DNA from: a virus
Lineage: Duplodnaviria; Heunggongvirae; Uroviricota; Caudoviricetes
Length of the DNA: 9,825 nucleotides
Strand: one strand, 5' to 3'
Virus record (IMG/VR): IMGVR_UViG_2713896737_000030
Position 1 is the first letter of the stretch, and each line of letters begins with the position of its first letter. Under the pieces are notes generated by a model. The model had not been told where the DNA came from and did no database searches. It saw only the letters and a program-made list of their open reading frames with translations. Of the stretch, positions 1 to 9,825 are shown piece by piece. A program made the position numbers and the translations under genes.

Positions 1-1230
1 ATGAGCAGAGCACTTAACAAACTGAGCGATACACAGCTGAGGAAAATCAACGGCACACCCGCCCAAAAAACAGCCTTTCTTAATGACGGTGGAAACCTGA
101 GCGTCAGGCATTCAACCAGTGGCCTTTTAACCTGGTATTTCACTTACAGGGCCGGAACGGGAAGGGGGGCACCACCGGAACGCATTAAGCTGGGAAATTA
201 TCCTGATCTGAGCCTGAAATCAGCCAGGGAAAAAGCCGCCCAGTGTCGCGCATGGCTGGCAGAGGGGAAAAATCCACGTCATGAGCTTAATTACACCGTA
301 CAGGAAGCGTTAAAGCCGGTAACGGTTGGCGATGCGCTCACCTACTGGCTTGAGTCGTACGCAAAGGAAAACCGCGTGGATTATGCCGCCCTGAAAAAGC
401 GCCTTAATAATCACGTAATACAGCACATTGGTGCTATGCCGCTGGATAAATGCGAGCTACGGCACTGGCTGGCCTGTTTTGACCAGGTGGCAAAGCGAAC
501 GCCTGTTACTGCCGGATTCTTGCTACAGACGTGCAAACAGGCGCTTAAGTTCTGCCGGAGGCGGCGCTATGCAATCAGCAACGTTCTTGATGATATGAGT
601 GTGGCGGACGTTGGGAAAAAACCGGATATAAGCGAGCGTGTCTTAAGCACCAAAGAACTGGGCGAATTATTGCAGGCACTGGACAAAAAAATATTCTCCC
701 CCTACTACATCGCGTTAATCCGCCTCCTGATTGTGTTCGGATGCCGGACGGTAGAACTGAGGTTATCGGAGATCAGCGAGTGGGATTTTACCGAAATGCT
801 CTGGACCGTTCCGAAGGAGCACAGCAAAACGAAGGTAGCCATATTCCGGCCTATACCGGAAGCAATACTGCCGTTCATCACGCAGCTGGTGGAGCAGAAC
901 AGGCACACGGGCTTATTGCTGGGGGAAGTGAAACAGGAGGCCAGCGTATCGCAGTATGGAAGATTAGCGCACAGGAGGCTTAATCACCCTCACTGGTCAC
1001 TGCATGACATCCGGCGCACCTTTACAACCATGCTGAACGATTTAGGCGTTGATCCGCATGTCGTGGAGCAGCTTACAGGCCACCAGATGCCAGGAATGCA
1101 GCGAGTTTATAATCATTCCCGTTATCTGGATGCGAAACGCAATGCGCTGGATATGTGGACGGAGCGGTTAGGGATACTGGCGGGAACACATGAAAACGTA
1201 ACCACGCTACCAGTAGCCAGAAGAAAATAA
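1..1230 (+). CDS. int: Tyrosine recombinase / integrase, P4-like family (409 aa)
   Basis: Full-length ORF beginning at base 1. N-terminal arm-binding-like region (LSDTQLRKI...FLNDGGNLSVRHSTSGLLTWYFTYR) and C-terminal catalytic region with HDIRRTFTT...GHQ...YNHSRY, consistent with the R-H-R-Y tyrosine recombinase signature. No tRNA or att site is visible in the window, so the integration site must lie outside it. Confidence 0.9.
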   Translation: MSRALNKLSDTQLRKINGTPAQKTAFLNDGGNLSVRHSTSGLLTWYFTYRAGTGRGAPPERIKLGNYPDLSLKSAREKAAQCRAWLAEGKNPRHELNYTVQEALKPVTVGDALTYWLESYAKENRVDYAALKKRLNNHVIQHIGAMPLDKCELRHWLACFDQVAKRTPVTAGFLLQTCKQALKFCRRRRYAISNVLDDMSVADVGKKPDISERVLSTKELGELLQALDKKIFSPYYIALIRLLIVFGCRTVELRLSEISEWDFTEMLWTVPKEHSKTKVAIFRPIPEAILPFITQLVEQNRHTGLLLGEVKQEASVSQYGRLAHRRLNHPHWSLHDIRRTFTTMLNDLGVDPHVVEQLTGHQMPGMQRVYNHSRYLDAKRNALDMWTERLGILAGTHENVTTLPVARRK

Positions 1231-1247
1231 TTTTTTTCGTGTTTTTT

Positions 1248-1263
1248 CAGTATGCGCATACTG
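1248..1263. promoter_or_regulatory. 16-bp perfect palindrome CAGTATGCGCATACTG immediately after the int stop, preceded by T-runs
   Basis: Read directly from sequence; self-complementary. Not a canonical terminator on either strand (no U-tract following the hairpin in the transcribed sense). Possible protein-binding site. Confidence 0.35.
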
Positions 1264-1285
1264 GATATGCGAACAGATACAACGT

Positions 1286-1325
1286 GCAACAATGAGCAAC
1301 AATGTGGAACAACTACGAACAAGAG
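1286..1325 (+). repeat. Four tandem ~10-bp units (GCAACAATGA / GCAACAATGT / GGAACAACTA / CGAACAAGAG) in the int-alpA intergenic region
   Basis: Direct reading: GCAACAATG occurs at 1286-1294 and 1296-1304, followed by two degenerate units. The 10-bp period (one helical turn) suggests phased protein-binding sites. Confidence 0.5.
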
Positions 1326-1594
1326 GCGAAAAAGCGTACGGATTTATAAGTAGCTGATTTTTAATGTGTTACTGGTTTTTTATACACTAGCGAATCACTC
1401 TTTAAAGAGCGAGAAAAAAGGCATGGAACAATATTTTATGCCTTTGTATTAACATGAATTTAAAAGATTTTATTCTTACTTTTTCATTTTCTGTAAATCA
1501 TACATCCTCAGTATTTGCCATTCATCACTCTAGCGGGAACAATACGACACAATAAGACACCTGATGACTCTTTAAGAAACGAAAGGGGGCAATA

Positions 1595-1783
1595 GTGTTA
1601 AGCACTGATCGGTTTATACGTGAAAAAGAATGCGAAAAACTAACCGGCCTTAGCCGTACGTGTCGCTACCGCCTGGAAAAGGCCGGACAATTCCCATCAC
1701 GTCGTAAACTTGGCGGTCGTTCCGTTGGCTGGTCTTTATCCGAGGTTCTGGCCTGGAAGGATAGCTGCAAGGCAGTTCATTAA
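1595..1783 (+). CDS. alpA: AlpA-family phage transcriptional regulator (small HTH, excisionase-like), GTG start
   Basis: 62-aa ORF with an SD-like AGGGGG 6 nt upstream of GTG at 1595. Protein (FIREKECEKLTGLSRTCRYRLEKAGQFPSRRKLGGRSVGWSLSEVLAWK) matches the AlpA/Xis-like pattern. Lies directly downstream of int in the same orientation, as in Gram-negative PICIs and CP4-57-like islands. Confidence 0.85.
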   Translation: MLSTDRFIREKECEKLTGLSRTCRYRLEKAGQFPSRRKLGGRSVGWSLSEVLAWKDSCKAVH

Positions 1784-1929
1784 TCACGCTGGCGGCACAC
1801 AGCCGCCACACATCAATCATCTGAACACAGAGCTATAACCATGAAGATTGAATATACGCCAGAACGTGGGCGGGGATTCGTTCGCCCTGGTGAGACTGGA
1901 AAACCACAAAATTGGGGTTTTTCAGGCAT

Positions 1930-1958
1930 AAAAAAAGCGGCCCCGAAATGGAGCCGCC
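1930..1958 (-). terminator. Putative rho-independent terminator for the minus-strand two-gene module
   Basis: On the minus strand: 5-bp GC stem (GCGGC / GCCGC, + coordinates 1937-1941 / 1953-1957), 11-nt loop, then a 7-T tract (complement of the A-run at 1930-1936). About 95 nt downstream of the minus-strand ORF stop at 2053. Confidence 0.55.
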
Positions 1959-2052
1959 TTTCTGAACAGATAACCCGCTGCGCCTTATGTGTATATGATC
2001 CCAAACATAAGCACGGGGATGATAGCCGCTATCAGGCTGGTGGGCAATGCTA

Positions 2053-2226
2053 TCAGTCTGGTTCAGTTCGTTGCCATACCTGCAATGGGCGCGTTTCCCT
2101 GTACTCTTTAAGGAATTGCTCAAGGGCAAAAGCACATGGCGCGAATCTTTCTGATTCATGCTCTATCTTTCTGCGCCGTCTTTTCCGTGCCGGTGATAAT
2201 GTTTTGGTCAATTCTTTATCGGTCAT
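2053..2226 (-). CDS. Hypothetical small basic protein (57 aa from the second ATG; 62 aa if the ATG at 2241 is used)
   Basis: ORF-track entry 2053..2241 (-). The second ATG (2226) has an AGGA-type SD about 7 nt upstream, whereas the first ATG is preceded by a 7-bp hairpin (2248-2254 / 2268-2274). Contains a KRRRRK basic stretch. Rare codons (AGA, AGG, ATA) are consistent with horizontally acquired DNA. Function unknown. Confidence 0.4.
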   Translation of the reverse strand: MTDKELTKTLSPARKRRRRKIEHESERFAPCAFALEQFLKEYRETRPLQVWQRTEPD

Positions 2227-2283
2227 TGTGTTGTCCTGCATAGCAATGCGCCGTAATACCTCACACCACGGCGCTGATAGTTT

Positions 2284-2457
2284 TTATCCTTTGGGTTCTA
2301 TGCCGCGTTGCTGTAATTCTTTGCGGAGAACGCGTTTAATCCAAGTGGCTAAAGATGTGTCGCCATCGGCCTTAGCAGCTTCTTCTAGCTGCGCTCTGAA
2401 GTCTTCCGGTAATCGCATTTGGTATGGAGGCGAACGTTTTTCTAATGGTGTTGACAT
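2284..2457 (-). CDS. Arc/MetJ-type ribbon-helix-helix DNA-binding protein (57 aa); not in the ORF track because it is under 60 aa
   Basis: Manual translation of the minus strand gives MSTPLEKRSPPYQMRLPEDFRAQLEEAAKADGDTSLATWIKRVLRKELQQRGIEPKG. This has the RHH pattern (beta strand YQMRLPEDF, helix, G-x-S/T-L turn, second helix) comparable to P22 Arc and Mnt. SD-like AAGGG lies 8 nt upstream of the ATG. Confidence 0.65.
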   Translation of the reverse strand: MSTPLEKRSPPYQMRLPEDFRAQLEEAAKADGDTSLATWIKRVLRKELQQRGIEPKG

Positions 2458-2499
2458 GGTAATTACCCTTTATTGCTATACCTACATGGTAATTACCAT
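2451..2499. promoter_or_regulatory. Operator/promoter region: two copies of ACATGGTAATTACC (2454-2467, 2484-2497) spaced 30 bp, each containing the palindrome GGTAATTACC; TTGACA -35 hexamer at 2451-2456 and TGcTATACC extended -10-like at 2474-2482
   Basis: Read directly. The second copy is a perfect 14-bp palindrome, ATGGTAATTACCAT (2486-2499). The first copy overlaps the RHH start codon and SD region. Both flank a plausible + strand sigma70 promoter that faces the downstream + strand operon. Confidence 0.5.
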
Positions 2500-2587
2500 T
2501 GTACTTGCCATTACACAAAAATCAACGCCCCGCAGTGCTGGGAACACATACGGGGCGTCTAACCAACAACGTAAACTAGGAGCCGTT

Positions 2588-2785
2588 ATGGTTGCCGTAA
2601 ATCATATACCACACCTTGTACACACACAAACGGCCTTTGTGTGGCGTTTTCTGGCACTGAGTGCCGGAGAATCTCAAATCATCCACGTAACCGCCTGGAC
2701 GGAACGCGAAGCGCGTAACCGTTGCCCGTCCGGTTGTGTTGCTGTATTTGCCGCCCGTATTCGTCAGGAGGTGCGCCATGATTAA
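2588..2785 (+). CDS. Hypothetical small protein (65 aa)
   Basis: The 3' part of the long 1841..2785 ORF. ATG at 2588 has a good SD (AGGAG, 5 nt spacing). Stop overlaps the next start (ATGATTAA), suggesting translational coupling. Function unknown; small proteins at this position in such islands are often annotated Icd-like or Ash-like, but I cannot confirm that from sequence. Confidence 0.55.
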   Translation: MVAVNHIPHLVHTQTAFVWRFLALSAGESQIIHVTAWTEREARNRCPSGCVAVFAARIRQEVRHD

Positions 2786-2990
2786 TCTGTCACTTACTGA
2801 CCTTAACCGCATTCAGTTTCGTGAGAAATTCACAGGGCAGCTACTGGTCAATGTGGATAAAGGTCGCGTGGTGTGTAATTACCACTTACCAGATGAAGCA
2901 ATTGTCGCCACAAGGGAATCATTACAGGAAATCACAAAACGTGCCGGAATGATTAACACGAATATTCAGGGGATGCTTTATGCACAATAA
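2778..2990 (+). CDS. Hypothetical small protein (70 aa)
   Basis: ATG at 2778 preceded by AGGAGG (7 nt spacing). Overlaps the upstream and downstream genes in an operon-like arrangement. Confidence 0.55.
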   Translation: MINLSLTDLNRIQFREKFTGQLLVNVDKGRVVCNYHLPDEAIVATRESLQEITKRAGMINTNIQGMLYAQ

Positions 2991-3444
2991 AACCACACCG
3001 GACGCAGCCGCCGAAGCCATCAAAACGCTGATGCACGCGCTGATTGATATTTCTGTTATCGCGGACAGGGCACATAAGCACGCCACCAGCGAAACAGAAT
3101 ATGCCGGTGCTTTCGTTCCTCACTCACTGGCTGTCATGCAATTTAGTGCTGATACGGCGCTGAATGAGGCCAAAGCTATCCTGATTGCTGATTGTGAAAA
3201 TGGGGGGGTTATGCGTGATGATCGTTTTAATTCCCTGAAACAGGAATTTTCCGGCGTTCCTGATGATGCGGCTGATGCGCTTTCGTCAATGCCAGAACTT
3301 ATTAGAGCGGCTTTTTTCTTACTTTCCACGAGAGAATATAAATCAACGGGGCTTGATGTACTGAATATCGCCGCCGATTATGCGGAATATGTGGCAGAGG
3401 CGCGTTATAGAAGAAAATTTCCTGAGGATGTAAGCCATGCGTGA
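2980..3444 (+). CDS. Hypothetical protein (154 aa)
   Basis: ORF with an AGGGGA SD-like sequence. Overlaps the next gene start by 8 nt (ATG at 3437, TGA at 3442-3444). No recognisable motif. Confidence 0.7.
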   Translation: MHNKTTPDAAAEAIKTLMHALIDISVIADRAHKHATSETEYAGAFVPHSLAVMQFSADTALNEAKAILIADCENGGVMRDDRFNSLKQEFSGVPDDAADALSSMPELIRAAFFLLSTREYKSTGLDVLNIAADYAEYVAEARYRRKFPEDVSHA

Positions 3445-3670
3445 TATTTACCACCAAACAATAGACCGCGCATTTCTTGCACTTTCTCACAGTGAAAACA
3501 TGATGGAAATATTGCGCATATGGCTTGAAACACTTGGCGACAATGAACGCGACAAACAAAAATCAAGAATTGCCACGGCATTAATAACGCTTCTTGAGCC
3601 TGTAATAATGGAACTGCAAGAAATAGATCTATTGCACGACAGATATAAAGAACAGCACACCGGAGAATAA
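3437..3670 (+). CDS. Hypothetical protein (77 aa)
   Basis: Start overlaps the previous stop (translational coupling). No recognisable motif. Confidence 0.65.
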   Translation: MRDIYHQTIDRAFLALSHSENMMEILRIWLETLGDNERDKQKSRIATALITLLEPVIMELQEIDLLHDRYKEQHTGE

Positions 3671-3675
3671 AAATA

Positions 3676-3975
3676 ATGAAACTTAAATATTCTGGCTTAA
3701 CTGCCAGTGGCAACACTCACCCTAAATTTACGCGCGGTGATATTTACCGCGACCAGTACGGCGGCACGGTAATGATTAAGGGCGTGGAAGAACGGCGCGT
3801 AACCTACCGCCGTGAAGGTTACGAATATGATTGCGTGATGCCTGTTTATCAGTTCCGGCGTGATTTTTCTCTGGTACAGACCGCGCCGCATAACGTGCCC
3901 ACCAGCAACGCCAGGGCACGGGCAAACATCCAGAAGCTGAAAACCATGGTTAACGGATTCAGGGGCAAGAAATGA
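3676..3975 (+). CDS. Hypothetical protein (99 aa)
   Basis: GGAGAA SD upstream. Stop overlaps the ATG of the replication gene (ATGA at 3972-3975). Confidence 0.65.
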   Translation: MKLKYSGLTASGNTHPKFTRGDIYRDQYGGTVMIKGVEERRVTYRREGYEYDCVMPVYQFRRDFSLVQTAPHNVPTSNARARANIQKLKTMVNGFRGKK

Positions 3976-5372
3976 AAAGCGCACCGAACTTAAAAAAACA
4001 GCCTTACGACAAGATGACCGAAGTCATTATTTTTGCGGGTAGTGATGCCTGGGCACATGCGAAACAGTGGCAGGAACAGGACGGGCGACTGGCTGGCGAT
4101 AATGTGCCTCCCGTTGTGCTGGCTGATGATCAACTGGATGAACTGGCAGAACTGAGAATCATCGACGAGGGGCGCTATTGTGTCCGGCTGTACAAGGCAG
4201 GCCACATCAGGCCATCAAATATTAATGCCATTGCGCACAAGCTGGCGGCGGCGGGTGTAACTGATGCGAATTATTACCCCGAAGGGATGCACAGCCATAT
4301 GCGGGAGAACTGGCGCGAATACCTGGAACGGGTGCGCGGGAAAGAGCCGGCGGAAGAAAAAAACCACCAGCGAAAAACCACGCTACCGATGAGCGTTGGA
4401 TCTACCGGATACGACACGCAACTGGATTACGTGGTTAAGGGGATTATTCCGGCGGTATCGCTATGCAGCATATACGGGGCTAGCGGGTCCTATAAATCAT
4501 TCCTTGCCGGATCGTGGGCGTGCCATGTTGCCACTGGTCGCCAGTGGGGAGGCCGCAGGGTTGCACATGGTGCGGTTCTCTATGTGGTTGGTGAAGGCGG
4601 TATAGGTGTTCCGCGTCGTGTAAAAGCCTGGGAGGTTGTGCACGATGAGCAGGTGAAAAATCTGTATCTGGTAAACCGCCCCATCTTTCCGGCTGCCCCG
4701 CTTGATGTTGATGAAATGGTTATCGCTGCCCGTCAGGTGGAGCGGGAAACGGGTAAACCTGTACGCATGATTATTCTGGATACGCTGGCGCGTTGCTTTG
4801 GTGGGAATGATGAAAATGATTCCCGTGATATGGGGGCGTTTATCCGTGGTTGTGACGAACTGAAACGACGCACAGGGGCCACGGTGCTGGTGGTTCACCA
4901 TTCCGGCAAGGATGAGACGAAAGGCGCGCGCGGTTCCAGTGCATTTCGTGCTTCGCTGGATGCTGAATACCGGATACGCAGGGAGGACGCAGGAAGCGAA
5001 GCGCTGGTTATCTCATGCACCAAAATGAAGGACGCGGAGGAACTCAAAGAAGCCGCATATGACTTACGCGTGGTGGAGCTTTTTACCGACGCTGACGGTG
5101 AATTAATCACGTCGCTGGTGGTGGTGGATGATCCGCGCCCTCCTGTTGAACTGGAGCGCATCGAGGAGGCAGGGAACAAGACGGAAAACCATACCGCGCT
5201 ATGGGGGTGCATCCGTTCACGCACACAGAACGGCGACAAGTGCACGATCCCGCTGTTACGTGATGACATGAAAAAGCTGGGGTATGAAATGAAAAACTTC
5301 CGGCGCTGGCTGTACAAGCTGGAAAAAGATGGGGTTATTCGTATCGATGGGGATGATGTAGCGCCGCTATAA
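3972..5372 (+). CDS. Replication initiator ATPase/helicase, RepA-like RecA-fold (AAA_25-type) domain with N-terminal extension (466 aa); PICI pri/rep-like
   Basis: Walker A-like GASGSYKS, Walker B-like RMIILD, and downstream VVHHSGKD...RGSSA motifs typical of RepA/DnaB-like RecA-fold ATPases. Positioned after alpA and followed by an iteron array. Confidence 0.85.
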   Translation: MKSAPNLKKQPYDKMTEVIIFAGSDAWAHAKQWQEQDGRLAGDNVPPVVLADDQLDELAELRIIDEGRYCVRLYKAGHIRPSNINAIAHKLAAAGVTDANYYPEGMHSHMRENWREYLERVRGKEPAEEKNHQRKTTLPMSVGSTGYDTQLDYVVKGIIPAVSLCSIYGASGSYKSFLAGSWACHVATGRQWGGRRVAHGAVLYVVGEGGIGVPRRVKAWEVVHDEQVKNLYLVNRPIFPAAPLDVDEMVIAARQVERETGKPVRMIILDTLARCFGGNDENDSRDMGAFIRGCDELKRRTGATVLVVHHSGKDETKGARGSSAFRASLDAEYRIRREDAGSEALVISCTKMKDAEELKEAAYDLRVVELFTDADGELITSLVVVDDPRPPVELERIEEAGNKTENHTALWGCIRSRTQNGDKCTIPLLRDDMKKLGYEMKNFRRWLYKLEKDGVIRIDGDDVAPL

Positions 5373-5563
5373 AAGTGAGGAGCAAAAGCGAGGGGGATAG
5401 AAAGAGGGCCAAAATTAGCCCGCTCTCCCTCACTTTTCGACCTGTATACATCCTCAAAAGTGAGGGGTAAAAAAATACTTATGAAACACACACATAGAAA
5501 AACCGAAAATCCCAACTGCGACGAAGTGAGACGCTTGAAAAAGTGAGGCGAAAAAGTGAGAGG
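5372..5563. repeat. Iteron array (candidate replication origin): at least 6 copies of AAGTGAG, consensus (A)AAAGTGAGG, including one inverted copy
   Basis: Direct copies at 5373-5379, 5457-5463, 5524-5530, 5541-5547 and 5554-5560; inverted copy at 5428-5437 (CCTCACTTTT). Degenerate copies at 5385-5396 and 5401-5410. Lies immediately downstream of the rep gene. Confidence 0.65.
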
Positions 5564-5572
5564 TTGCGAGAA

Positions 5573-5824
5573 ATGACCCAAAAACGCAGAGACAGAACAG
5601 AGCCAAAATATAAAGCGTTAGACATGACTGAGCACACCTTAAAGGTGGCAATCAGAACGATAGACCGCCACACGCGGGAAGGATACGCGAAGGAACATCC
5701 CGACCTGATAAGCGCATTCATGACCACGGCGGCGGCAAACTTTGCCACGCTGACAGAACGGGAGATTGCCGAAGCGGAACAGGTAACAACCATCAACGTT
5801 AAAACCGGAGAGGTGGAATTATGA
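5573..5824 (+). CDS. Hypothetical protein (83 aa; start uncertain, alternatives at 5543 and 5620)
   Basis: ORF-track 5543..5824, but the 5543 start would lie inside the iterons. ATG at 5573 has a GAGAGG SD-like sequence upstream. Stop overlaps the ssb start (ATGA at 5821-5824). Confidence 0.5.
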   Translation: MTQKRRDRTEPKYKALDMTEHTLKVAIRTIDRHTREGYAKEHPDLISAFMTTAAANFATLTEREIAEAEQVTTINVKTGEVEL

Positions 5825-6231
5825 CGGCACAGATAGCCGCTTACGGGCGGCTGGTGGACGACCCGCAGGTAAAACAGACCAGCAAGGGCACACCGATGAC
5901 GCTGGCGCGTATGGCGGTATCTTTGCCATGCAGCCAGGCACAGGACGGACAGGCGACGTTATGGTTATCGGTCATCGCATTTGGCAAACAGGCCGGCTTC
6001 CTGGCTAAACATCAAAAAGGCGATGTTGCCAGCGTATCCGGCACGATGCAGGTAAGCCAGTGGACCGGACAGAACGGAGAAACGCGGCAGGGCTGGCAGG
6101 TTATCGCAGACAGCGTAATCAGTGCCCGCGCGGCACGTCCAGGCGGGAACAGACGCAAAACCACAGGCACACAGGGTAATCAGCCACCAGCGGGAGGCGA
6201 TGACCCTTACGGTGATGATATTTCGTTCTGA
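5821..6231 (+). CDS. ssb: Single-stranded DNA-binding protein (SSB-like OB-fold) with Gly/Gln-rich linker and acidic C-terminal tail (DDPYGDDISF)
   Basis: N-terminal region resembles E. coli SSB (RLVDDPQVK...; WLSVIAFGKQAGFLAKHQKGDVASVSGTMQVSQWTGQNGETR compared with [40 protein letters not shown]). C-terminus resembles the SSB DDDIPF tail. Confidence 0.75.
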   Translation: MTAQIAAYGRLVDDPQVKQTSKGTPMTLARMAVSLPCSQAQDGQATLWLSVIAFGKQAGFLAKHQKGDVASVSGTMQVSQWTGQNGETRQGWQVIADSVISARAARPGGNRRKTTGTQGNQPPAGGDDPYGDDISF

Positions 6232-6241
6232 GGGGGTGACG

Positions 6242-6514
6242 ATGGTACATGACCGCATAGCGGAGGAACTGGAGGCGAAAGGCTTTTACCGGAGGGCGGC
6301 GGCGCGATGGGGTGAAGTCATGCAGCTGGTGGAGACAGACAAGGAACGGCATCACATCACGATGCGACGGCTGGAATGTTCAAGGAAGGCACAGAGGGCA
6401 CCGGAGCCGCCGGATAATTTCGGAGACCTGAAAAAGGCAGTCGATCGCACTTATGCCGAAATGGGTATAGATGGTGCTGGTGATGAAATATGGCGCAATT
6501 ACCAGGACAGCTAA
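6242..6514 (+). CDS. PerC-family transcriptional regulator-like protein (90 aa)
   Basis: Start ATG 6242 with a GAGGGGG SD. N-terminus MVHDRIAEELEAKGFYRRAAARW matches the PerC/Pch signature (AExLExxGxWRRAAxRW). The longer track ORF from 6122 overlaps ssb and is rejected. Confidence 0.7.
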   Translation: MVHDRIAEELEAKGFYRRAAARWGEVMQLVETDKERHHITMRRLECSRKAQRAPEPPDNFGDLKKAVDRTYAEMGIDGAGDEIWRNYQDS

Positions 6515-6520
6515 TCAAAC

Positions 6521-6544
6521 AGCCGGAGAAATCCGGCTTTTTTT
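6521..6544 (+). terminator. Rho-independent terminator (copy 1 of a repeated hairpin)
   Basis: AGCCGGA-GAAA-TCCGGCT stem-loop (7-bp stem, GAAA tetraloop) followed by 7 Ts, directly after the PerC-like stop. Confidence 0.8.
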
Positions 6545-6640
6545 GCACCAGTTGAAACGGTATGGCGCATTACCGGGTTTTCGTCACGGTCAGGCATAGT
6601 TACTATCTGAAACAAACAGACACAACAGAGGAAAAAAACA

Positions 6641-6865
6641 ATGCCGATGAAATTTGATGAGATATTAAAACAGCGTGATAAATACCATGCTGACAACATG
6701 GAGACGATGAGCATCAATGATTACCGCGCATTCCTGGAGACGGGCGCACTGATTGAAAAGGATCAGCATGGTTTTGTGAGATGTGCTCTATCCGGTGAAA
6801 TGCTGGCGGTAAATCCTGAACAGATAGATGCATTGATAGAATTTCTGAAAGAGATCAGAGACTGA
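6641..6865 (+). CDS. Hypothetical small protein (74 aa), a stand-alone gene bounded by terminators
   Basis: AGAGGA SD 8 nt upstream of the ATG. Flanked by terminators at 6521-6544 and 6885-6907. Confidence 0.6.
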   Translation: MPMKFDEILKQRDKYHADNMETMSINDYRAFLETGALIEKDQHGFVRCALSGEMLAVNPEQIDALIEFLKEIRD

Positions 6866-6884
6866 GCCAGCACACAGCACACAT

Positions 6885-6907
6885 AGCCGGAGCAATCCGG
6901 CTTTTTT
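6885..6907 (+). terminator. Rho-independent terminator (copy 2 of the repeated hairpin)
   Basis: GCCGGA-GCAA-TCCGGC followed by 6 Ts. Confidence 0.75.
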
Positions 6908-6913
6908 GCGCCC

Positions 6914-6955
6914 AAAAAAAGCCCGATAAGGTCAGAGGGTTCTTATCGGGCTTTT
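6914..6955. terminator. Bidirectional terminator-like hairpin (10-bp stem GCCCGATAAG / CTTATCGGGC, A7 upstream, T4 downstream)
   Basis: Perfect 10-bp inverted repeat at 6921-6930 / 6942-6951 with an 11-nt loop. The A-run at 6914-6920 gives a 7-U tract when read on the minus strand. Confidence 0.6.
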
Positions 6956-7032
6956 GCATATGAGGTTTTTGGATGCACTGGCGTTCGTGATCGGGATAAT
7001 CATTTCATAATTTGCAACATAACTCAATATCA

Positions 7033-7062
7033 TTGCATAAAATGCAATTCTGATTATAATCA
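7033..7062 (+). promoter_or_regulatory. Candidate promoter for the head-gene operon: consensus TATAAT at 7055-7060 inside the 12-bp palindrome TGATTATAATCA (7051-7062); upstream inverted repeat TTGCA-N5-TGCAA (7033-7047)
   Basis: Read directly. AT-rich region between the bidirectional terminator and the first gene of the capsid operon. Which -35 hexamer is used is unclear. Confidence 0.35.
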
Positions 7063-7116
7063 GGACTGGATAAACATCCAGTTATGATTTTTTTAGTCGA
7101 AGAGGAATTTCTTACT

Positions 7117-7323
7117 ATGGCTGAAGAGAAAAAAAGCGGTGTTTCGGTGTACATAAGCCCCGAAATCGTGGAGGTGCTCAAGCAGCGCCACAAAAAAAAC
7201 TATGAAGCTGGCGTTGCGGCTGGACTGGATCCGCTGATGACGCCGGAGCCGTCGATAGGTTCACTTGTACGCTCTTATTTACTTGCGGCGCTTGGGATGC
7301 ATAAAAATTATGGGGGTGAATAA
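7117..7323 (+). CDS. Hypothetical small protein (68 aa; alternative start 7084), translationally coupled to the capsid gene
   Basis: AGAGGA about 10 nt upstream of ATG 7117. Stop TAA overlaps the capsid gene ATG (TAATG at 7321-7325). Confidence 0.5.
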   Translation: MAEEKKSGVSVYISPEIVEVLKQRHKKNYEAGVAAGLDPLMTPEPSIGSLVRSYLLAALGMHKNYGGE

Positions 7324-8378
7324 TGGCAGGCAAAGCAACGGCACTTAACACTAACCAGCTTTTCATGTACCTGAATCGCGGGGATATTGCGGATTTTAAA
7401 TTCAGCCCTCTGTTTACCACGCTGTTTTTCCCGAACGTGGCGACATTCAGCACGCAAAACATCATGCTGGATACCCTGGACATTGAAGAAGTCACCATGT
7501 CGGCGTTTTGTTCGCCTATGGTGGGTAGCCAGGTTCAGCGCGATAAAGGGTACGAAACCAGCACAATCAAACCTGGCTACATGAAGCCAAAGCACGAAAT
7601 CGATCCAACGAAAACCATCATGCGCATGGCTGGAGAAGATCCGGCACAGCTTAACGACCCTACCTATCGCCGTATGCGCCTGATTACTGGCAACATGCGC
7701 CGCCAGATAAACGCCATTAAGGCACGCGTGGAATGGCTGGCGGTGAATGCGGTAACGACCGGAAAAAACATCATTGAGGGCGAAGGCATAGAACGCTATG
7801 AAATCGACTGGAAAATACCGGAAAACTGCATCATAGAGCAGGCCAAGGGTAAAAAATGGTCCGAGCAGGATAAAGACATGCACGACCCAATCTATGACAT
7901 CGAGCTTTATGCTGATCAGGCTGGTTGCCCCGCAAACGTCATGATTATGGGCGCTGAGGTATGGCGCACATTACGCAGCTTTAAAAAATTCCGTGAGCTG
8001 TACGATCTTTCCCGTGGTTCAGAATCCGCCGCCGAACTGGCCTGTAAAAACCTGGGCGAAGTGGTGAGCTTTAAAGGCTATCTTGGTGATCTGGCCCTTA
8101 TCGTCTATTCCGGCAAATACACTGACAGCGATGGTACCGAAAAATATTTCCTTGAGCCTGATTTGCTGGTCCTAGGTAACACCAACAATAAAGGGCTGGT
8201 GGCCTATGGTGCGATAATGGATCAGGAAGCGGTAAGAACGGGCGCAACACAAAACATGTTTTACCCGAAAAACTGGATTGAGGACGGCGATCCGGCGATT
8301 GAGTACGTGCAGACACACAGTGCACCGCAGCCGGTACCGGCAGATATTCGCAAATTTGTTACCGTCAAAATTGGTTAA
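7323..8378 (+). CDS. Major capsid protein, phage lambda gpE-like family (351 aa)
   Basis: Several conserved blocks match lambda gpE as recalled: FKFSPLFTTLFF vs FKFDPLFLRLFF; PGYMKPKHEIDP vs PGYVKPKHEVNP; DPTYRRMRLI vs DPAYRRRRII; YPKNWIEDGDPAIEYVQTHSAP vs YPKNWVTTGDPAREFTMIQSAP. Length is similar (351 vs 341 aa). Strong SD (GGGGGTG). Confidence 0.85.
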   Translation: MAGKATALNTNQLFMYLNRGDIADFKFSPLFTTLFFPNVATFSTQNIMLDTLDIEEVTMSAFCSPMVGSQVQRDKGYETSTIKPGYMKPKHEIDPTKTIMRMAGEDPAQLNDPTYRRMRLITGNMRRQINAIKARVEWLAVNAVTTGKNIIEGEGIERYEIDWKIPENCIIEQAKGKKWSEQDKDMHDPIYDIELYADQAGCPANVMIMGAEVWRTLRSFKKFRELYDLSRGSESAAELACKNLGEVVSFKGYLGDLALIVYSGKYTDSDGTEKYFLEPDLLVLGNTNNKGLVAYGAIMDQEAVRTGATQNMFYPKNWIEDGDPAIEYVQTHSAPQPVPADIRKFVTVKIG

Positions 8379-8390
8379 CGGGGGGATTCT

Positions 8391-8726
8391 ATGGACACTC
8401 CATACATTGAGTTATTTGCAGGCAGTCAGCAGGTATCCACGACGTTGGTACATTTTGCCGCTGATGCTGGCGTTATTCAGGAATTTACCCCGCTGATGCT
8501 GGCAGACAATGGCGAGTTTAAGCCGTGGGATGGTCAGGAATCTGGCAAGGCTGTTTATCTGACCTCGTACCCTGTGGACACGTCAAAGCAGAAATCAGCA
8601 CAGTGTTACAAGACGGGGATATTCAATATTGCCGCCGTTAACTGGCCTGAGAGCGTCGACACCGATGCGAAAAAATGCGCCGCCTTTGCGGGTTCCGGCG
8701 TATCCGTTCAGCCGCTGGCCCGATAA
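8391..8726 (+). CDS. Head decoration protein, phage lambda gpD-like (111 aa)
   Basis: TPLMLADNGEFKPWDG vs lambda D TPLMLDTSSRKLVAWDG; CYKTGIFNIAAVNWPESVDTDAKKCAAFAGSGVSVQ vs [36 protein letters not shown]. Length 111 vs 110 aa. Confidence 0.8.
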   Translation: MDTPYIELFAGSQQVSTTLVHFAADAGVIQEFTPLMLADNGEFKPWDGQESGKAVYLTSYPVDTSKQKSAQCYKTGIFNIAAVNWPESVDTDAKKCAAFAGSGVSVQPLAR

Positions 8727-8738
8727 GCAGGGGGAACG

Positions 8739-9152
8739 ATGGCAACGAATGAAAGCATCATGACGCTACCGCTGGCGAGTAAATTTAAAGTCGAAGCGCG
8801 GGCAATGGCTGACAGAGGTTTATCAACCTATGAGGCCGTATATCAACTAAACAAACTGGAAGAGCAGGACAAGCCGTGCGCTGATGCGATTATGGCGCTT
8901 CATGAGCATAAAGACTATCAGCCGCTGTTGCGTGCAATGGCAAACGTGCCTTGTATCGATGTTGGTACGGCTAAAAGCATCCTTAGCATGACCATAGAGC
9001 AGGAACGTCCGAAGGTTGCGCCGGAACTTACCGCAGCCTTTGAAAACTTTATGGACATGCACAGCCCGCAAGCCGTATCAGCTGGCATGGCATACGATGG
9101 CAGAAACCAGGGCGATGACGGCGACATCGATCGCATACTGAAAACCATCTGA
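8739..9152 (+). CDS. Hypothetical protein (137 aa) between the decoration gene and the cos site
   Basis: ORF with a CAGGGGGA SD and a terminator just downstream. No recognisable motif; its position suggests a head or packaging accessory role. Confidence 0.7.
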   Translation: MATNESIMTLPLASKFKVEARAMADRGLSTYEAVYQLNKLEEQDKPCADAIMALHEHKDYQPLLRAMANVPCIDVGTAKSILSMTIEQERPKVAPELTAAFENFMDMHSPQAVSAGMAYDGRNQGDDGDIDRILKTI

Positions 9153-9157
9153 GACAA

Positions 9158-9180
9158 GGCCGGAGAAATCCGGCTTTTTT
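9158..9180 (+). terminator. Rho-independent terminator (copy 3 of the repeated hairpin)
   Basis: GCCGGA-GAAA-TCCGGC followed by 6 Ts, 6 nt after the stop of the 137-aa gene. Confidence 0.75.
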
Positions 9181-9204
9181 ACGGGTCCTTCCTGGAATTA
9201 TGGC

Positions 9205-9245
9205 CCGTTACGGGGCGGCGACCTCGCGGATTTTCGCTATTTATG
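9205..9245. other. Lambda-type cos site: the 12-nt sequence at 9213-9224 (GGGCGGCGACCT) matches the lambda cohesive end (cosN), with lambda-like flanks
   Basis: Window sequence GTTACGGGGCGGCGACCTCGCGGATTTTCGCTATTTATGAGCCTTTTCAGG compared with the lambda left end as recalled, GGGCGGCGACCTCGCGGGTTTTCGCTATTTATGAAAATTTTCCGG. The match is near-identical through CGCTATTTATGA and diverges thereafter, where lambda cosB lies. Sits about 135 bp upstream of a Nu1-like gene, as in lambda. Confidence 0.75.
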
Positions 9246-9318
9246 AGCCTTTTCAGGGTGGTGGTGGTGGTTTTGTTGTTTGATCTATCTTTATGAATGA
9301 AAAGGGAAAGATGCAAGC

Positions 9319-9356
9319 AATACACCAACCTGAAGCAGTAATTAAGTTGGTGTATT
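9319..9356. promoter_or_regulatory. 11-bp perfect inverted repeat AATACACCAAC / GTTGGTGTATT with a 16-nt loop, abutting the terS-like start codon
   Basis: Read directly (9319-9329 and 9346-9356). Candidate protein-binding site in the cosB-equivalent region, or an mRNA structure affecting translation initiation. Confidence 0.4.
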
Positions 9357-9357
9357 A

Positions 9358-9702
9358 ATGAAATCTCATCTGATGAACAAAAAAAACATGGCGAAAAGCT
9401 GCCGTGTAAGTGCGACAGCGTTCGACAAGTGGGGAGTAACTCCCGTTGAGCGTAAAGGCCGTGAGGCGTTTTATGATGTTGCCAGCGTGATAGAAAATAG
9501 GGTTAACAATGCAATTAGCCAGCTTATAAACGACAAAGGCGAGATTGACGATGATGAACTTTTACGAGTCAGGATCAGATTACTGACAGCACAGGCAGAG
9601 GCGCAGGAACTTAAAAACGATCGCGGTGACGTGATTGATACTGAGTTTTGCCTGTACGCGCTTTCAAAGCTGGCGAGTCAGATTTCATCAATCATGGACT
9701 GA
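9358..9702 (+). CDS. Terminase small subunit, lambda Nu1-like (PICI Rpp-like); 114 aa, apparently truncated at the 3' end by an IS insertion
   Basis: LTAQAEAQELKNDRGDVIDTEFCLYALSKLASQISSIMD matches lambda Nu1 [42 protein letters not shown]. N-terminal region resembles the Nu1 winged-HTH region. Nu1 is 181 aa; here the reading frame ends with a TGA that is the first three bases of the IS (9700-9702). The exact start is uncertain (ATGs at 9358, 9373, 9388; none has a good SD). Confidence 0.75.
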   Translation: MKSHLMNKKNMAKSCRVSATAFDKWGVTPVERKGREAFYDVASVIENRVNNAISQLINDKGEIDDDELLRVRIRLLTAQAEAQELKNDRGDVIDTEFCLYALSKLASQISSIMD

Positions 9703-9825
9703 ACCGCCCCGGAAATCCTGGAGACTAAACTCCCTGAGAAAGAGGTAAACAGGATGACTAAAAATACTCGTTTTTCCCCCGAAGTCCGTCAGCGGGCGAT
9801 TCGTATGGTTCTGGAAAGTCAGGAT
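9700..9825 (+). mobile_element. IS3-family insertion sequence (IS629/IS1203-like left end), partial; continues beyond the window
   Basis: Left terminus TGAACCGCCCCGGAAATCCTGGAGACTAAACTCCCTGAGAAAGAGGTAAACAGG followed by the OrfA start. The terminal sequence and OrfA N-terminus match IS3-group elements as recalled. Confidence 0.75.
9754..9825 (+). CDS. IS3-family transposase OrfA (HTH subunit), N-terminal 24 codons; partial, runs off the window
   Basis: MTKNTRFSPEVRQRAIRMVLESQD matches the conserved N-terminus of IS629-like OrfA (MTKNTRFSPEVRQRAVRMVLESQ...). SD GAGAAAGAGG upstream. Confidence 0.8.
   Translation, partial: MTKNTRFSPEVRQRAIRMVLESQD

Follow-up and report, generated by a model that had tools for sequence, protein, structure and literature searches.

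The window, that is, the whole stretch of 9,825 nucleotides analysed here, carries a copy of O-island 51 (OI-51; CP-933C/Sp7) of E. coli O157:H7. In O157 as in CFT073, the attachment site is flanked by roxA (ycfD) and phoQ; this specific site is not used by prophages (PMC3378721), and the late region of OI-51 is 94% identical to that of EcCICFT073, an island with which OI-51 has already been equated (PMC6092414, PMC3378721). With attachment site and gene order in common, OI-51 is the O157 allele of this PICI. The annotation of an intact copy, together with Pfam, gave the make-up of a Gram-negative cos PICI: a length of about 10-15 kb, int at one end, an AlpA-type regulator, unidirectional genes and a replication module of its own; genes for TerL, portal, tail and lysis are lacking. 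Towards the right end of the window we found the following features:

9156..9180, plus strand: intrinsic-terminator-like hairpin followed by U6 (folding energy of the RNA -16.8 kcal/mol; z = -3.9; equalled by 0 of 200 shuffles)
9183..9189, plus strand: cosQ core GGGTCCT; position relative to the cut, -30..-24, equal to that in lambda (ungapped alignment)
9213..9224, plus strand: cosN, the 12-nt lambda cohesive-end sequence GGGCGGCGACCT
9225..9246, plus strand: cosN-proximal segment, bp 13-34, 21/22 (95%) identical to lambda
9255..9281, plus strand: G/T-rich R3-equivalent zone, bp 43-69, with (GGT)5 at 9257-9271, then TTTTGTTGTTT
9322..9334, minus strand: R2-equivalent ACACCAACCTGAA, bp 110-122, invariant in 53 of 53 sequences
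9344..9356, plus strand: R1-like direct copy AAGTTGGTGTATT, from a motif scan; right arm of an 11-bp inverted repeat
9358..9702, plus strand: 5' part of terS, a Nu1-family gene (Pfam PF07471, E = 1e-10, 41.8 bits against a cutoff of 30)
9700..9825, plus strand: left end of an IS3-family insertion sequence; the rest of the window past 9699 matches an IS3-family transposase element annotated in strain F765

The initial annotation had recognised the lambda cohesive end at 9213-9224, and all 12 positions are indeed identical. This is the sole match to GGGCGGCGACCT in the window at ≤1 mismatch (0.07 expected; at least one such match in 13 of 200 shuffles of the window). Nicking is predicted before 9213 on the top strand and after 9224 on the bottom strand, and bp numbers follow the lambda scale, with bp 1 at 9213. 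Lambda-like flanks of about 20 nt had been described on both sides. The right one stands, as bp 13-34, a segment common to the helper phages and all the island alleles, in which CTATTTATGAGC is invariant (53/53 sequences). The left one does not exist as a continuous 20 nt but comes in two pieces, GTTACG abutting the cut and TTTACGGGTCCTT containing the cosQ core, with about 16 diverged bp between them and 71% identity to lambda over -35..-1. Among the distinct island sequences GGGTCC is present in 52 of 53, and the exact cosN 12-mer in 39 of 53 distinct relatives, the rest having altered central bases and an unchanged cosB. The terminator-like hairpin, which a terminator consensus scan of 9000-9500 did not list, closes the capsid-gene operon just 5' of cosQ.

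Similarity to lambda ends at about 9247-9254, in the region of the lambda R sites as had been claimed, and identity falls to 53% over bp 35-70 and to 35% (about background) over bp 71-125. No lambda-type R site was found in 9225-9357 at ≤3 mismatches with the pattern CGTTTCC[G/T]TTCT, and no IHF consensus (≤1 mismatch) in cosB, including between the R-like sites described below. A search of 2.3 Gb of phage records aligned 9176-9258 with cos DNA from lambda and further lambdoid phages (80-82% identity, E between 8e-14 and 3e-12), and no alignment extends past 9258 (bp 46) in any of these records, which include 50,697 phage genomes. Judged by its sequence, cosB (bp 35-145) is island-specific DNA that replaces the binding region of the small terminase.

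A GGTTGGTG-like motif occurs three times in this cosB, in the orientation +, -, +, and its first two copies fall where lambda has R3 and R2. With AGGTTGGTG at ≤1 mismatch, 3 of the 5 matches in the window fall inside the 148-bp cosB (0 of 5000 shuffles), the motif having been derived from the same region. The G/T-rich zone occupies the position of R3 in lambda (bp 50-65) and N15 (bp 48-59) (PMC9026076, PMC4669245) and resembles the N15 R3, GAGGTTGTTGTT; its GGT tract, earlier given as (GGT)4-5 at 9256-9270, is present in the refined form listed above. Within the zone TGGTGGTGGTTTTGTTGTT is exact in 44 of 53 distinct relatives, and the 5' part, bp 42-49, varies. This allele-variable segment overlaps the first motif copy (bp 43-51), so that R3 can be placed only tentatively. 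A placement of the R3-like site at bp 43-51 clashes with the variability and was abandoned; the contact zone is more likely bp 50-68, which is better conserved. Three 12-mers resembling N15 R3, with 3 mismatches each, lie at bp 49-60, 57-68 and 109-120, the GTTGTT core being shifted by +9 bp relative to N15.

The R2-equivalent is the longest invariant run in cosB. Its minus strand gives TTCAGGTTGGTGT, which repeats the beginning of the R3 zone in inverted orientation (inverted repeat 9252-9263 / 9323-9334, 12 nt, 92%), at about the position of the inverted R2 of lambda (bp 109-120). The invariance of this 13-mer is only modestly unusual relative to local variability (440 of 20,000 permutations). 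The GGT/TTGTTGTT tract and ACACCAACCTGAA are named here as putative cosB elements recognised by TerS; alternatively, ACACCAACCTGAA could belong to the promoter or operator of terS. The terminator upstream (9156..9180) implies that terS needs a promoter of its own, and a consensus scan of 9000-9500 for sigma-70 promoters came back empty. The 11-bp inverted repeat noticed earlier is real, with 100% complementary arms at 9319-9329 and 9346-9356. We rejected it as a conserved palindrome or hairpin, its right arm being exact in only 19 of 53 relatives and its left arm lacking compensatory changes, and we read it instead as the R2-like site plus a degenerate, poorly conserved R1-like site.

The terS gene starts 145 bp to the right of cosN, and from the alignment with lambda and N15 its true start may be the ATG at 9373. 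Its 114 codons in the window cover the DNA-binding domain together with the middle region. The intact protein (180 aa) is 36% identical to lambda Nu1 over its full length (E = 1e-33), and its closest phage small terminase is N15 gp1 (44% identity, no phage TerS being higher). Identity is unevenly distributed: in the DNA-binding domain it is 59% with N15 gp1 and 33% with lambda Nu1, and the recognition helix AFDKWGV is near-identical to that of N15, helix and wing being N15-like and almost invariant across the island alleles. The middle, self-association region is 35-47% identical to phage TerS. Compared with the C-termini of the phage Nu1 proteins examined, the C-terminus has only 38-52% identity (38% to lambda, and likewise only 38% to the N15 domain) and bears an extra 12-aa tail, and by homology it is an island-specific version of the TerL-binding region of Nu1. 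Because of this divergence and of the tail, pairing with a lambda-type TerL is only putative. Among the alleles, 2 of 20 columns vary in DNA-binding residues 21-40 vs 39 of 60 in the C-terminal 60 residues. The C-terminal variants partly track the cosN type, an association that could be plain linkage.

The specificity protein had been likened to the Rpps of PICIs, a comparison that holds as an analogy only. No similarity of TerS to RppA was detectable (BLASTP, E = 3.4), and a phmmer search of the PDB did not match RppC (6HLK) at E up to 1; as a control, RppA matches 6HLK at E = 5e-31. Rpps are proteins of 135-153 aa with a wHTH and a dimerisation helix of their own, and lack the C-terminal TerL-binding region of TerS (PMC9026076), whereas the island protein has 180 aa, aligns to the Nu1 C-terminus and shows no detectable similarity to RppA or RppC. 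It is a full-length small terminase of the Nu1 family, and not an Rpp. A gpA homologue stood beside terS in none of 80 related loci, and all those with enough upstream sequence have a capsid gene and a cos upstream.

In this copy, terS is interrupted. The window matches the intact island only up to 9699, where the insertion sequence cuts the gene at codon 114, the TGA of its terminus serving as stop codon; some 64 C-terminal aa, homologous to the TerL-binding domain of Nu1, are lost. This copy of terS therefore cannot make the full factor. As the C-terminal third is removed, cos1 is probably orphaned here, unless another locus provides intact TerS in trans. An independent insertion sequence lies in the terS of another strain.

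The intact O157 island (strain TW14359) has a second cos copy, inverted, downstream of terS, so that a direct cos1 and an inverted cos2 flank the packaging-specificity gene; the two cosN lie at 15213-15224 (+) and 16080-16091 (-) in the numbering of this locus (L001). The window holds cos1 only, cos2 being beyond the insertion sequence and outside the sequence. In EcCICFT073, cos1 is needed for transfer by lambda and phi80 (PMC6092414, PMC6739421). Identity between the O157 and CFT073 islands is about 94% as far as bp 42 to the right of the cut (9254); from there to the inverted cos2 they are unrelated. Because similarity breaks at bp 42 and resumes at cos2, we regard cosB and the specificity gene as a swappable cassette. 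In the cq9 island, a PhiR5_1-like DNA-binding domain goes with a PhiR5_1-like cosB (86%) while the island-type C-terminus is kept (71%); the retention of 71% identity between islands with swapped DNA-binding domains suggests that the C-terminal region has a function of its own.

The two islands thus compared share their chromosomal site, a backbone of int, AlpA-like HTH, RgdR, SSB, PerC, E-like capsid gene, D-like decoration gene and 137-aa ORF, and the order cos1, specificity gene, inverted cos2, 93-aa ORF. Both have a lambda-like cosQ, cosN and bp 13-34 and a non-phage cosB, with a triplet repeat at the R3 position (ACCACCACC in CFT073, GGTGGTGGT in the O157 island). They differ in the specificity protein, a 144-aa Rpp in EcCICFT073 (cos1 with RppA; Fillol-Salom 2018, 2019; Murialdo & Feiss 2022) and, in OI-51, a Nu1 homologue of 180 aa whose C-terminus resembles a TerL-binding region, the two having no detectable similarity. 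Their cosB sequences are unrelated (28% ungapped), with 145 bp to the start codon in OI-51 vs about 100 bp, and with three motif copies vs the single proposed R3-PICI of EcCICFT073. The replication module is a RepA helicase in OI-51 and a primase in EcCICFT073.

With lambda (R3-I1-R2-R1), the island shares the identical 12-nt end, the cosQ distance, bp 13-34 (21/22), motif copies in the orientation +, -, + of which the first two fall at R3 and R2, and a TerS gene directly downstream that is homologous along its full length; it lacks the lambda R sequence and a recognisable IHF site I1, its third motif copy is about 20 bp closer, and no gpA gene follows the TerS gene. The G/T-rich R3 of N15 (GAGGTTGTTGTT) resembles GGTTTTGTTGTT and CAGGTTGGTGT of the island (Feiss et al. 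2015), but N15 combines one R3 with a remote rR2 located in gene 1, and its cohesive end differs at two positions. A parallel is also offered by the SaPI TerS-S, a satellite homologue of TerS that works with the helper TerL at a satellite-specific site, a logic that we propose for OI-51; SaPIs differ in being pac/headful, Gram-positive and endowed with a separate inhibitor of phage TerS (Ppi), whereas OI-51 is cos-type and has kept a helper-type cosN and cosQ.

It is probable, in our opinion, that the site is cos1, the packaging-initiation site of OI-51/CP-933C/Sp7, with helper-type cutting parts and with an island cosB and an island TerS that replaces the helper TerS. Packaging by a lambdoid helper with an own factor akin to a small terminase had been put forward before, and it gains support from the PICI allele, the helper-type cosQ and cosN, the island cosB, the Nu1-family gene and the lack of TerL. 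It also fits the exchange of cosB together with its gene, and the finding that Sp7 of O157 Sakai excises, forms circles and has its DNA in DNase-resistant particles, as bulk encapsidation (PMC2669165). After excision and replication driven by the helper, the island TerS would bind the island cosB; its Nu1-like C-terminal region would then recruit a gpA-type TerL of the helper, by which cosN would be nicked, and capsids made by the helper would be filled with island concatemers and not with phage DNA. CosQ, cosN with its flanks and bp 13-34 are kept in lambda form, these being the parts that have to be read by the helper TerL and the termination machinery. The anatomy, the homologies, the joint exchange of cosB and gene and the conservation pattern are observed; the base contacts of TerS and its direct pairing with TerL we infer. 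Because TerS is full-length, with a Nu1-like C-terminal region absent from Rpps, it probably replaces the helper TerS, as the SaPI small terminase does, instead of following the adaptor mechanism of Rpps.

Such an adaptor mechanism, in which the island TerS would enter mixed oligomers with the helper TerS without binding TerL itself, pull it off the phage cosB and leave it to the helper C-terminus to bring TerL to the island cos, is nevertheless what has been shown for RppA and RppC of the sister island, which require the helper terS (PMC6739421, PMC6092414). The Nu1-like self-association region, 35-47% identical to phage TerS, makes mixed oligomers conceivable, and the C-terminus, just 38% identical to that of lambda, ends in a non-phage tail. 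We consider it unlikely, though, since Rpps are argued to need the helper TerS precisely because they have no TerL-binding domain (PMC9026076), and the island TerS, without sequence similarity to Rpps, keeps the full-length region homologous to that of Nu1, still 71% identical between islands with swapped DNA-binding domains. Replacement of the helper TerS by that of the island also has to be weighed against a cosB that is not private to the satellite, that is, a complete cos of the N15/Monarch class read directly by a helper with an N15-like TerS, the island TerS being redundant or a leftover. The N15-like DNA-binding domain and helix, the match of the R-like sites to N15 R3 (9/11 to 9/12), the Monarch-type phages, which join an N15-like helix with a three-site cosB (Feiss et al., PMC4669245), and the cq9 island, whose cos1 copies the cosB of a real phage, would all be in keeping with it. 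It becomes highly unlikely when set against the 0 of 50,697 phage genomes that align with cosB, the ceiling of 44% identity between phage TerS and the island protein, the GTTGTT core lying 9 bp farther from cosN than in N15, and the homologues, which are in an island context in 80 of 80 cases with none adjoining TerL.

That the locus is an inert relic, the fragment of a decayed lambdoid prophage with a non-functional cos and Nu1 remnant, would agree with the long-standing annotation of CP-933C/Sp7 as a cryptic, 'highly degraded' prophage (PMC3378721, PMC2669165), with the disruption of terS here and, independently, in another strain, and with the failure to obtain transductants of Sp7 into K-12 (PMC2669165). 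We hold this to be very improbable: about 15% of complete E. coli genomes (816 of 5426) have the TerS-type cassette, the 180-aa ORF is intact in 36 of 36 distinct homologues examined, variable sequence surrounds a conserved DNA-binding domain and a conserved R2-like block, the gene order is unlike that of lambda and common to a demonstrably mobile PICI (PMC6092414), and Sp7 DNA is excised and encapsidated (PMC2669165).

The replacement of the helper TerS may be one instance of a wider arrangement, which we put forward tentatively and to which we give somewhat less than an even chance. The cos-PICIs of E. coli would carry interchangeable cassettes (cosB1, specificity gene, cosB2) within inverted cosN/cosQ repeats, the commonest encoding a true TerS whose two jobs are split between a conserved, satellite-private DNA-binding domain with its three-site cosB, and a fast-evolving, satellite-specific C-terminus (with the 12-aa tail absent from phage Nu1) for direct capture of the helper TerL. 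In that case, the helper TerS would be dispensable, and a satellite could track new helpers by altering only cosN and the C-terminus. The diversity of relatives was drawn from viral contigs and E. coli genomes; scans of species-representative genomes with TerS and the capsid protein found no relatives. A phage with a matching cosB was found for cos1 of cq9 (PhiR5_1) and partly for cos2. The Stx1-type phages resident in O157 were discarded as a source of the cosB of cos2, their cos and Nu1 being lambda-identical and unlike its CAGATCC repeats.

Rpp is the sole mechanism worked out for E. coli cos-PICIs, yet the RppA type was found in 110 complete E. coli genomes and the TerS type is about 7 times commoner. 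The TerS cassettes also amount to naturally swapped parts for separating cosB recognition (N-terminus of TerS) from TerL recruitment (C-terminus) in lambda-like terminases, one C-terminus occurring with various DNA-binding domains and cosBs, and one cosB with various cosN ends. For annotation, a 'terminase small subunit' with a lambda cos in a 'cryptic prophage' is the signature of a satellite and not debris. RgdR and a PerC-family regulator, which both affect type III secretion in EHEC, are encoded on OI-51/Sp7, so that its packaging bears on the spread of these virulence regulators.

Window positions 1-9699 match, at 99.9% identity, a chromosomal island that hundreds of O157:H7 genomes carry. 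The intact copy (strain TW14359) lies between roxA (ycfD) and phoQ and encodes, in order, a tyrosine integrase, a small HTH regulator, Icd-like ORFs, a DUF4222 protein, a RepA-family helicase, SSB, a PerC-family regulator, a lambda-E-like major capsid protein, a lambda-D-like decoration protein and a 137-aa ORF, followed by cos, a 180-aa 'terminase small subunit' and a 93-aa ORF; neither annotation nor Pfam revealed a large terminase, portal, protease, tail or lysis gene in it. This is O-island 51, also called CP-933C and Sp7 (PMC3378721), to which the PICI EcCICFT073 corresponds according to Fillol-Salom et al. (PMC6092414), and our comparison confirmed that CFT073 has the same island backbone at the same chromosomal site. 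EcCICFT073 has been found by experiment to have two cos sites: cos1 is needed for lambda- and phi80-mediated transfer, and deletion of the inverted cos2 raises transfer (PMC6092414). The gene beside cos1 encodes RppA (c1503, 144 aa), which binds the helper small terminase (TerS) and directs it instead to the non-phage cosB of the island (PMC6739421). In the intact O157 island, cos1, gene and inverted cos2 are arranged in the same way, cos2 falling past the window end. Asadulghani et al. reported spontaneous excision of Sp7 with accumulation of circular DNA, and Sp7 DNA that was DNase-resistant (encapsidated) with and without mitomycin C, transfer to K-12 being undetected (PMC2669165); what we say of cos function derives from the work on the sister allele, and of encapsidation from that on Sp7. 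OI-51 also encodes RgdR, a 99-aa activator of LEE type III secretion (PMC3378721), which together with the PerC-family regulator represents virulence-relevant cargo of the satellite.

Features of the island (window coordinates unless stated; bp on the lambda scale, bp 1 being window 9213)
3676-3975: DUF4222 ORF, 99 aa, equivalent to RgdR
6242-6514: PerC-family regulator, downstream of the SSB gene
9183-9189: cosQ core GGGTCCT within TTTACGGGTCCTT, -30 to -24 from the cut, exactly lambda's spacing
9213-9224: cosN, GGGCGGCGACCT, the lambda cohesive-end sequence
9255-9281 (bp 43-69): G/T-rich run GGGTGGTGGTGGTGGTTTTGTTGTTT, in the R3-position zone
9257-9271: (GGT)5 tract
bp 43-51 (+), 111-119 (-) and 132-140 (+): copies of AGGTTGGTG in cosB
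9319-9329 and 9346-9356: 11-bp arms of an inverted repeat
15905-16125 of the TW14359 locus (L001), outside the window: cos2, its cosB of lambda-like architecture

The lambda cohesive end recognised by the initial annotation at 9213-9224 is an identical 12-mer, with no other window match at ≤1 mismatch (shuffles gave a mean of 0.07 matches, and at least one in 13 of 200). Alone, such a 12-mer would be weak evidence, and it is the flanking context that carries the case. Against 2.3 Gb of phage records, 9176-9258 aligns at 80-82% identity (E 8e-14 to 3e-12) with lambdoid cos regions, including those of lambda, HK629/630, DE3, Stx1a phages and many ECOR-derived lambdoid phages. As had also been proposed, similarity is lost where lambda has its R sites: no phage alignment in these records extends beyond 9258, and ungapped identity to lambda, 12/12 in the 12-mer and 21/22 over bp 13-34, falls to background (53% over bp 35-70, 35% over bp 71-125). 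The lambda-like flanks of about 20 nt claimed for both sides hold on the right, but the left flank is in two pieces, GTTACG directly at the cut and the cosQ-bearing TTTACGGGTCCTT, separated by about 16 diverged bp. In 80 related TerS-type loci the 12-nt end, about 145 nt upstream of terS, itself varies in its central bases (GGGCGGAAGGCG, GGGCGTCAGGCG, GGGCGGCAGACG, GGGCGGCTGACG and single-base variants) beside constant cosQ, nick flanks, cosB and TerS DNA-binding domain; a possible sign that the islands track helpers whose ends differ.

By homology, the specificity factor is a genuine small terminase rather than an Rpp. The window ORF (9358-9702) matches Pfam Phage_Nu1, and the intact 180-aa protein aligns end to end with lambda Nu1 (36% identity, E = 1e-33), its nearest relative among 50,697 phage records being N15 gp1 (44%); all 153 phage matches are below 60% identity. 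It has no appreciable similarity to RppA (E = 3.4) and matched no Rpp chain in the PDB, a search in which an RppA query recovers RppC (6HLK/6HN7) at 5e-31. The expectation of an own small-terminase-like factor is thus borne out by a full-length Nu1 homologue, but its likening to Rpp holds only as an analogy. Over the DNA-binding domain (residues 6-50), identity is 59% with N15 gp1 and only 33% with lambda; the recognition helix and wing read SATAFDKWGVTPVERKGREAFYDV, versus SVQAFDKWGVQPVEKRGREVFFDV in N15. In the C-terminal third, which corresponds by homology to the gpA-binding part of Nu1, identity is 38% with lambda and N15 and 52% with PhiR5_1; the final 12 aa (TTGNVPEKLLQKKGE) form a tail absent from phage Nu1 proteins.

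The anatomy and homologies that we observed, together with the covariation of the cassette, make it probable that cos1 is a hybrid of helper-type cosQ and cosN with an island-specific cosB. The helper's large terminase (TerL) would read the former and the island's own TerS the latter, with TerS recruiting the helper TerL directly; the TerS-cosB contacts and TerS-TerL pairing are what we infer.

A scan of 9225-9357 at ≤3 mismatches found no lambda-type R site; in lambda, scanning places the sites at bp 53-64 (+), 109-120 (-) and 154-165 (+). The (GGT)4-5 tract and inverted repeat announced for this region both exist, the tract being (GGT)5 and lying one base further on. The R3 position is bp 50-65 in lambda, bp 48-59 in N15 and bp 48-65 for the R3-PICI proposed in Rpp islands (PMC9026076, PMC4669245). 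Three of the five window matches to AGGTTGGTG at ≤1 mismatch fall within the 148-bp cosB, a number reached in 0 of 5000 shuffles of the region, a significance overstated by derivation of the motif from this same region. Their +, -, + order is that of the lambda-type complex cosB (R3-R2-R1, with R2 inverted), and they match N15 R3 (GAGGTTGTTGTT) at 9/11 to 9/12. Exact blocks were counted in the 53 distinct cos sequences of the 80 loci (TerS 80-100% identical). ACACCAACCTGAA (9322-9334, the inverted middle site) is exact in all 53 and is the longest invariant run of cosB (permutation, 440/20000); TGGTGGTGGTTTTGTTGTT is exact in 44. The complete (GGT)5 is kept in only 9, its 5' portion being variable. 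These counts make bp 50-68, in approximate R3 register, and bp 110-122 the best-supported candidate contact elements for TerS. The 11-bp inverted repeat was ruled out as a conserved hairpin, since its right arm is exact in 19/53 without compensating change in the left.

In the Rpp-type cos1 of CFT073, ACCACCACC lies at bp 55-63, versus its reverse complement GGTGGTGGT in 9257-9271 of the TerS type, despite the unrelated sequences of Rpp and TerS; this could be a low-complexity coincidence or an inverted shared ancestral element. A 15-nt inverted repeat (80% complementary) joins 9226-9240, in the lambda-like cosN-proximal segment, with 9388-9402 in terS coding sequence; it recalls the remote rR2 inside N15 gene 1, but involves a different segment, and the pairing may be chance. 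Between the 137-aa ORF stop and cosQ, 9156-9180 folds into a strong hairpin (-16.8 kcal/mol, z = -3.9) followed by a U6 tract, so that terS would need a promoter within cosB, or antitermination; consensus scans matched no promoter, nor this hairpin/U6 as a terminator.

Comparison of island alleles delimits the exchanged unit. By blastn, the O157 and CFT073 islands are 94% identical over window 6873-9254 (capsid genes, cosQ, cosN and bp 1-42), with no similarity thereafter before the inverted cos2. The unit is thus cosB1, specificity gene and cosB2, between two inverted cos cores (76 bp and 91% identical to each other in O157). The island of E. coli strain cq9 (NZ_CP031546 3315961-3323276), a sister at a different chromosomal site, has a TerS that is, by sequence, a natural chimera: the DNA-binding domain is lambda/PhiR5_1-like (36% identical to that of O157), the C-terminus island-type (71%, 12-aa tail included). 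Its cos1 cosB is 86% identical to that of phage PhiR5_1 over bp 35-70. It has CATGTCGG-type repeats at the positions of lambda R3 and R1 (bp 53-62 and 154-163) and, at that of R2, an inverted ATGTCG core (about bp 111-120). DNA-binding domain and cosB thus change together, while the C-terminal module is retained. The cos2 cosB is unrelated in CFT073 but 89% identical between O157 and cq9, two islands that differ in cos1 cosB and in the DNA-binding domain of TerS; its motif CAGATCC(G/T).TCT, at about bp 52-67 (+), 109-122 (-) and 151-166 (+), found no match in lambda-type Stx1 phages.

Within the related loci, 2 of 20 columns vary in TerS residues 21-40, against 39 of 60 in residues 121-180. 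One C-terminal allele accompanies non-lambda ends in 11/12 cases, the O157-type allele lambda-type ends in 17/17. This would be expected if the satellite's DNA-binding domain and cosB had only each other to match, whereas cosN and the C-terminus of TerS had to suit whichever helper TerL is in use; simple linkage could also explain the association. In the 80 loci, no gpA homologue adjoins terS. In the Stx1-type phages resident in O157, cos and Nu1 are identical to those of lambda, so helpers able to cut cosN are present, but cos1 lacks their R sites.

An Rpp-like adaptor mode, acting through helper TerS as in the sister CFT073 island, is an unlikely rival to the hybrid: Murialdo & Feiss argue that Rpps require helper TerS through being without the TerS C-terminal region (PMC9026076), whereas the island TerS has one. 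That cosB actually belongs to an unsampled N15/Monarch-type helper would suit the N15-like DNA-binding domain, but we consider it improbable, as none of the 50,697 phage records yielded an alignment with this cosB and the best phage TerS match reaches 44% identity. An inert relic is more improbable still, given the invariant middle site and the encapsidated Sp7 DNA, even if the window allele is itself broken. Similarity to the intact island ends at 9699, and 9700-9825 comes from one end of an IS3-family element. A TGA in this element closes the terS ORF after codon 114, so that the product keeps the DNA-binding and middle regions and loses the C-terminal third. In strain F765 (L002 14487-15791), terS is broken about 43 codons in by an independent IS, and two separate insertions in one 540-bp gene suggest an IS hot spot or selection to inactivate it. 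The window allele also has one GATCGC copy at 9618-9629, versus two in TW14359 and all 36 distinct homologues, deleting two residues (DR) from the TerS middle region.

PICIs with helper cosN/cosQ and a private cosB are known (PMC6092414, PMC6739421, PMC9026076), and small terminase is already a core gene in PICI models (PMC10085698). Our literature searches returned no description of the cos-type Nu1-family variant or its N15-like DNA-binding domain, of its three-site cosB at lambda-like positions, of the island-specific TerS C-terminal module, or of the cassette between inverted cos cores; O157, cos2 and island homologues of TerS all go unmentioned in PMC9026076. Of 5426 complete E. coli genomes, 816 carry the TerS-type cassette (763 at ≥80% coverage) and 110 the RppA-type (97 at that coverage).

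The capsid block (7323-9152) has the E-like before the D-like gene, the reverse of lambda order, between a conserved 68-aa ORF upstream and the 137-aa ORF downstream, with no portal, protease or scaffold gene. Deletion of the CFT073 homologues c1499 and c1500 left interference unrelieved, and the heads that package that island are full-size (PMC6092414). Other loci combine the same TerS cassette with a second capsid class of only 55% identity. In viral contigs of 14-60 kb (L058-L069), terS is followed about 2.1 kb downstream by a second, partial match to the E-like capsid (43% identity); these islands may lie beside or inside a lambdoid prophage, comparable to helper-embedded satellites (bioRxiv 10.1101/2022.07.18.500453).
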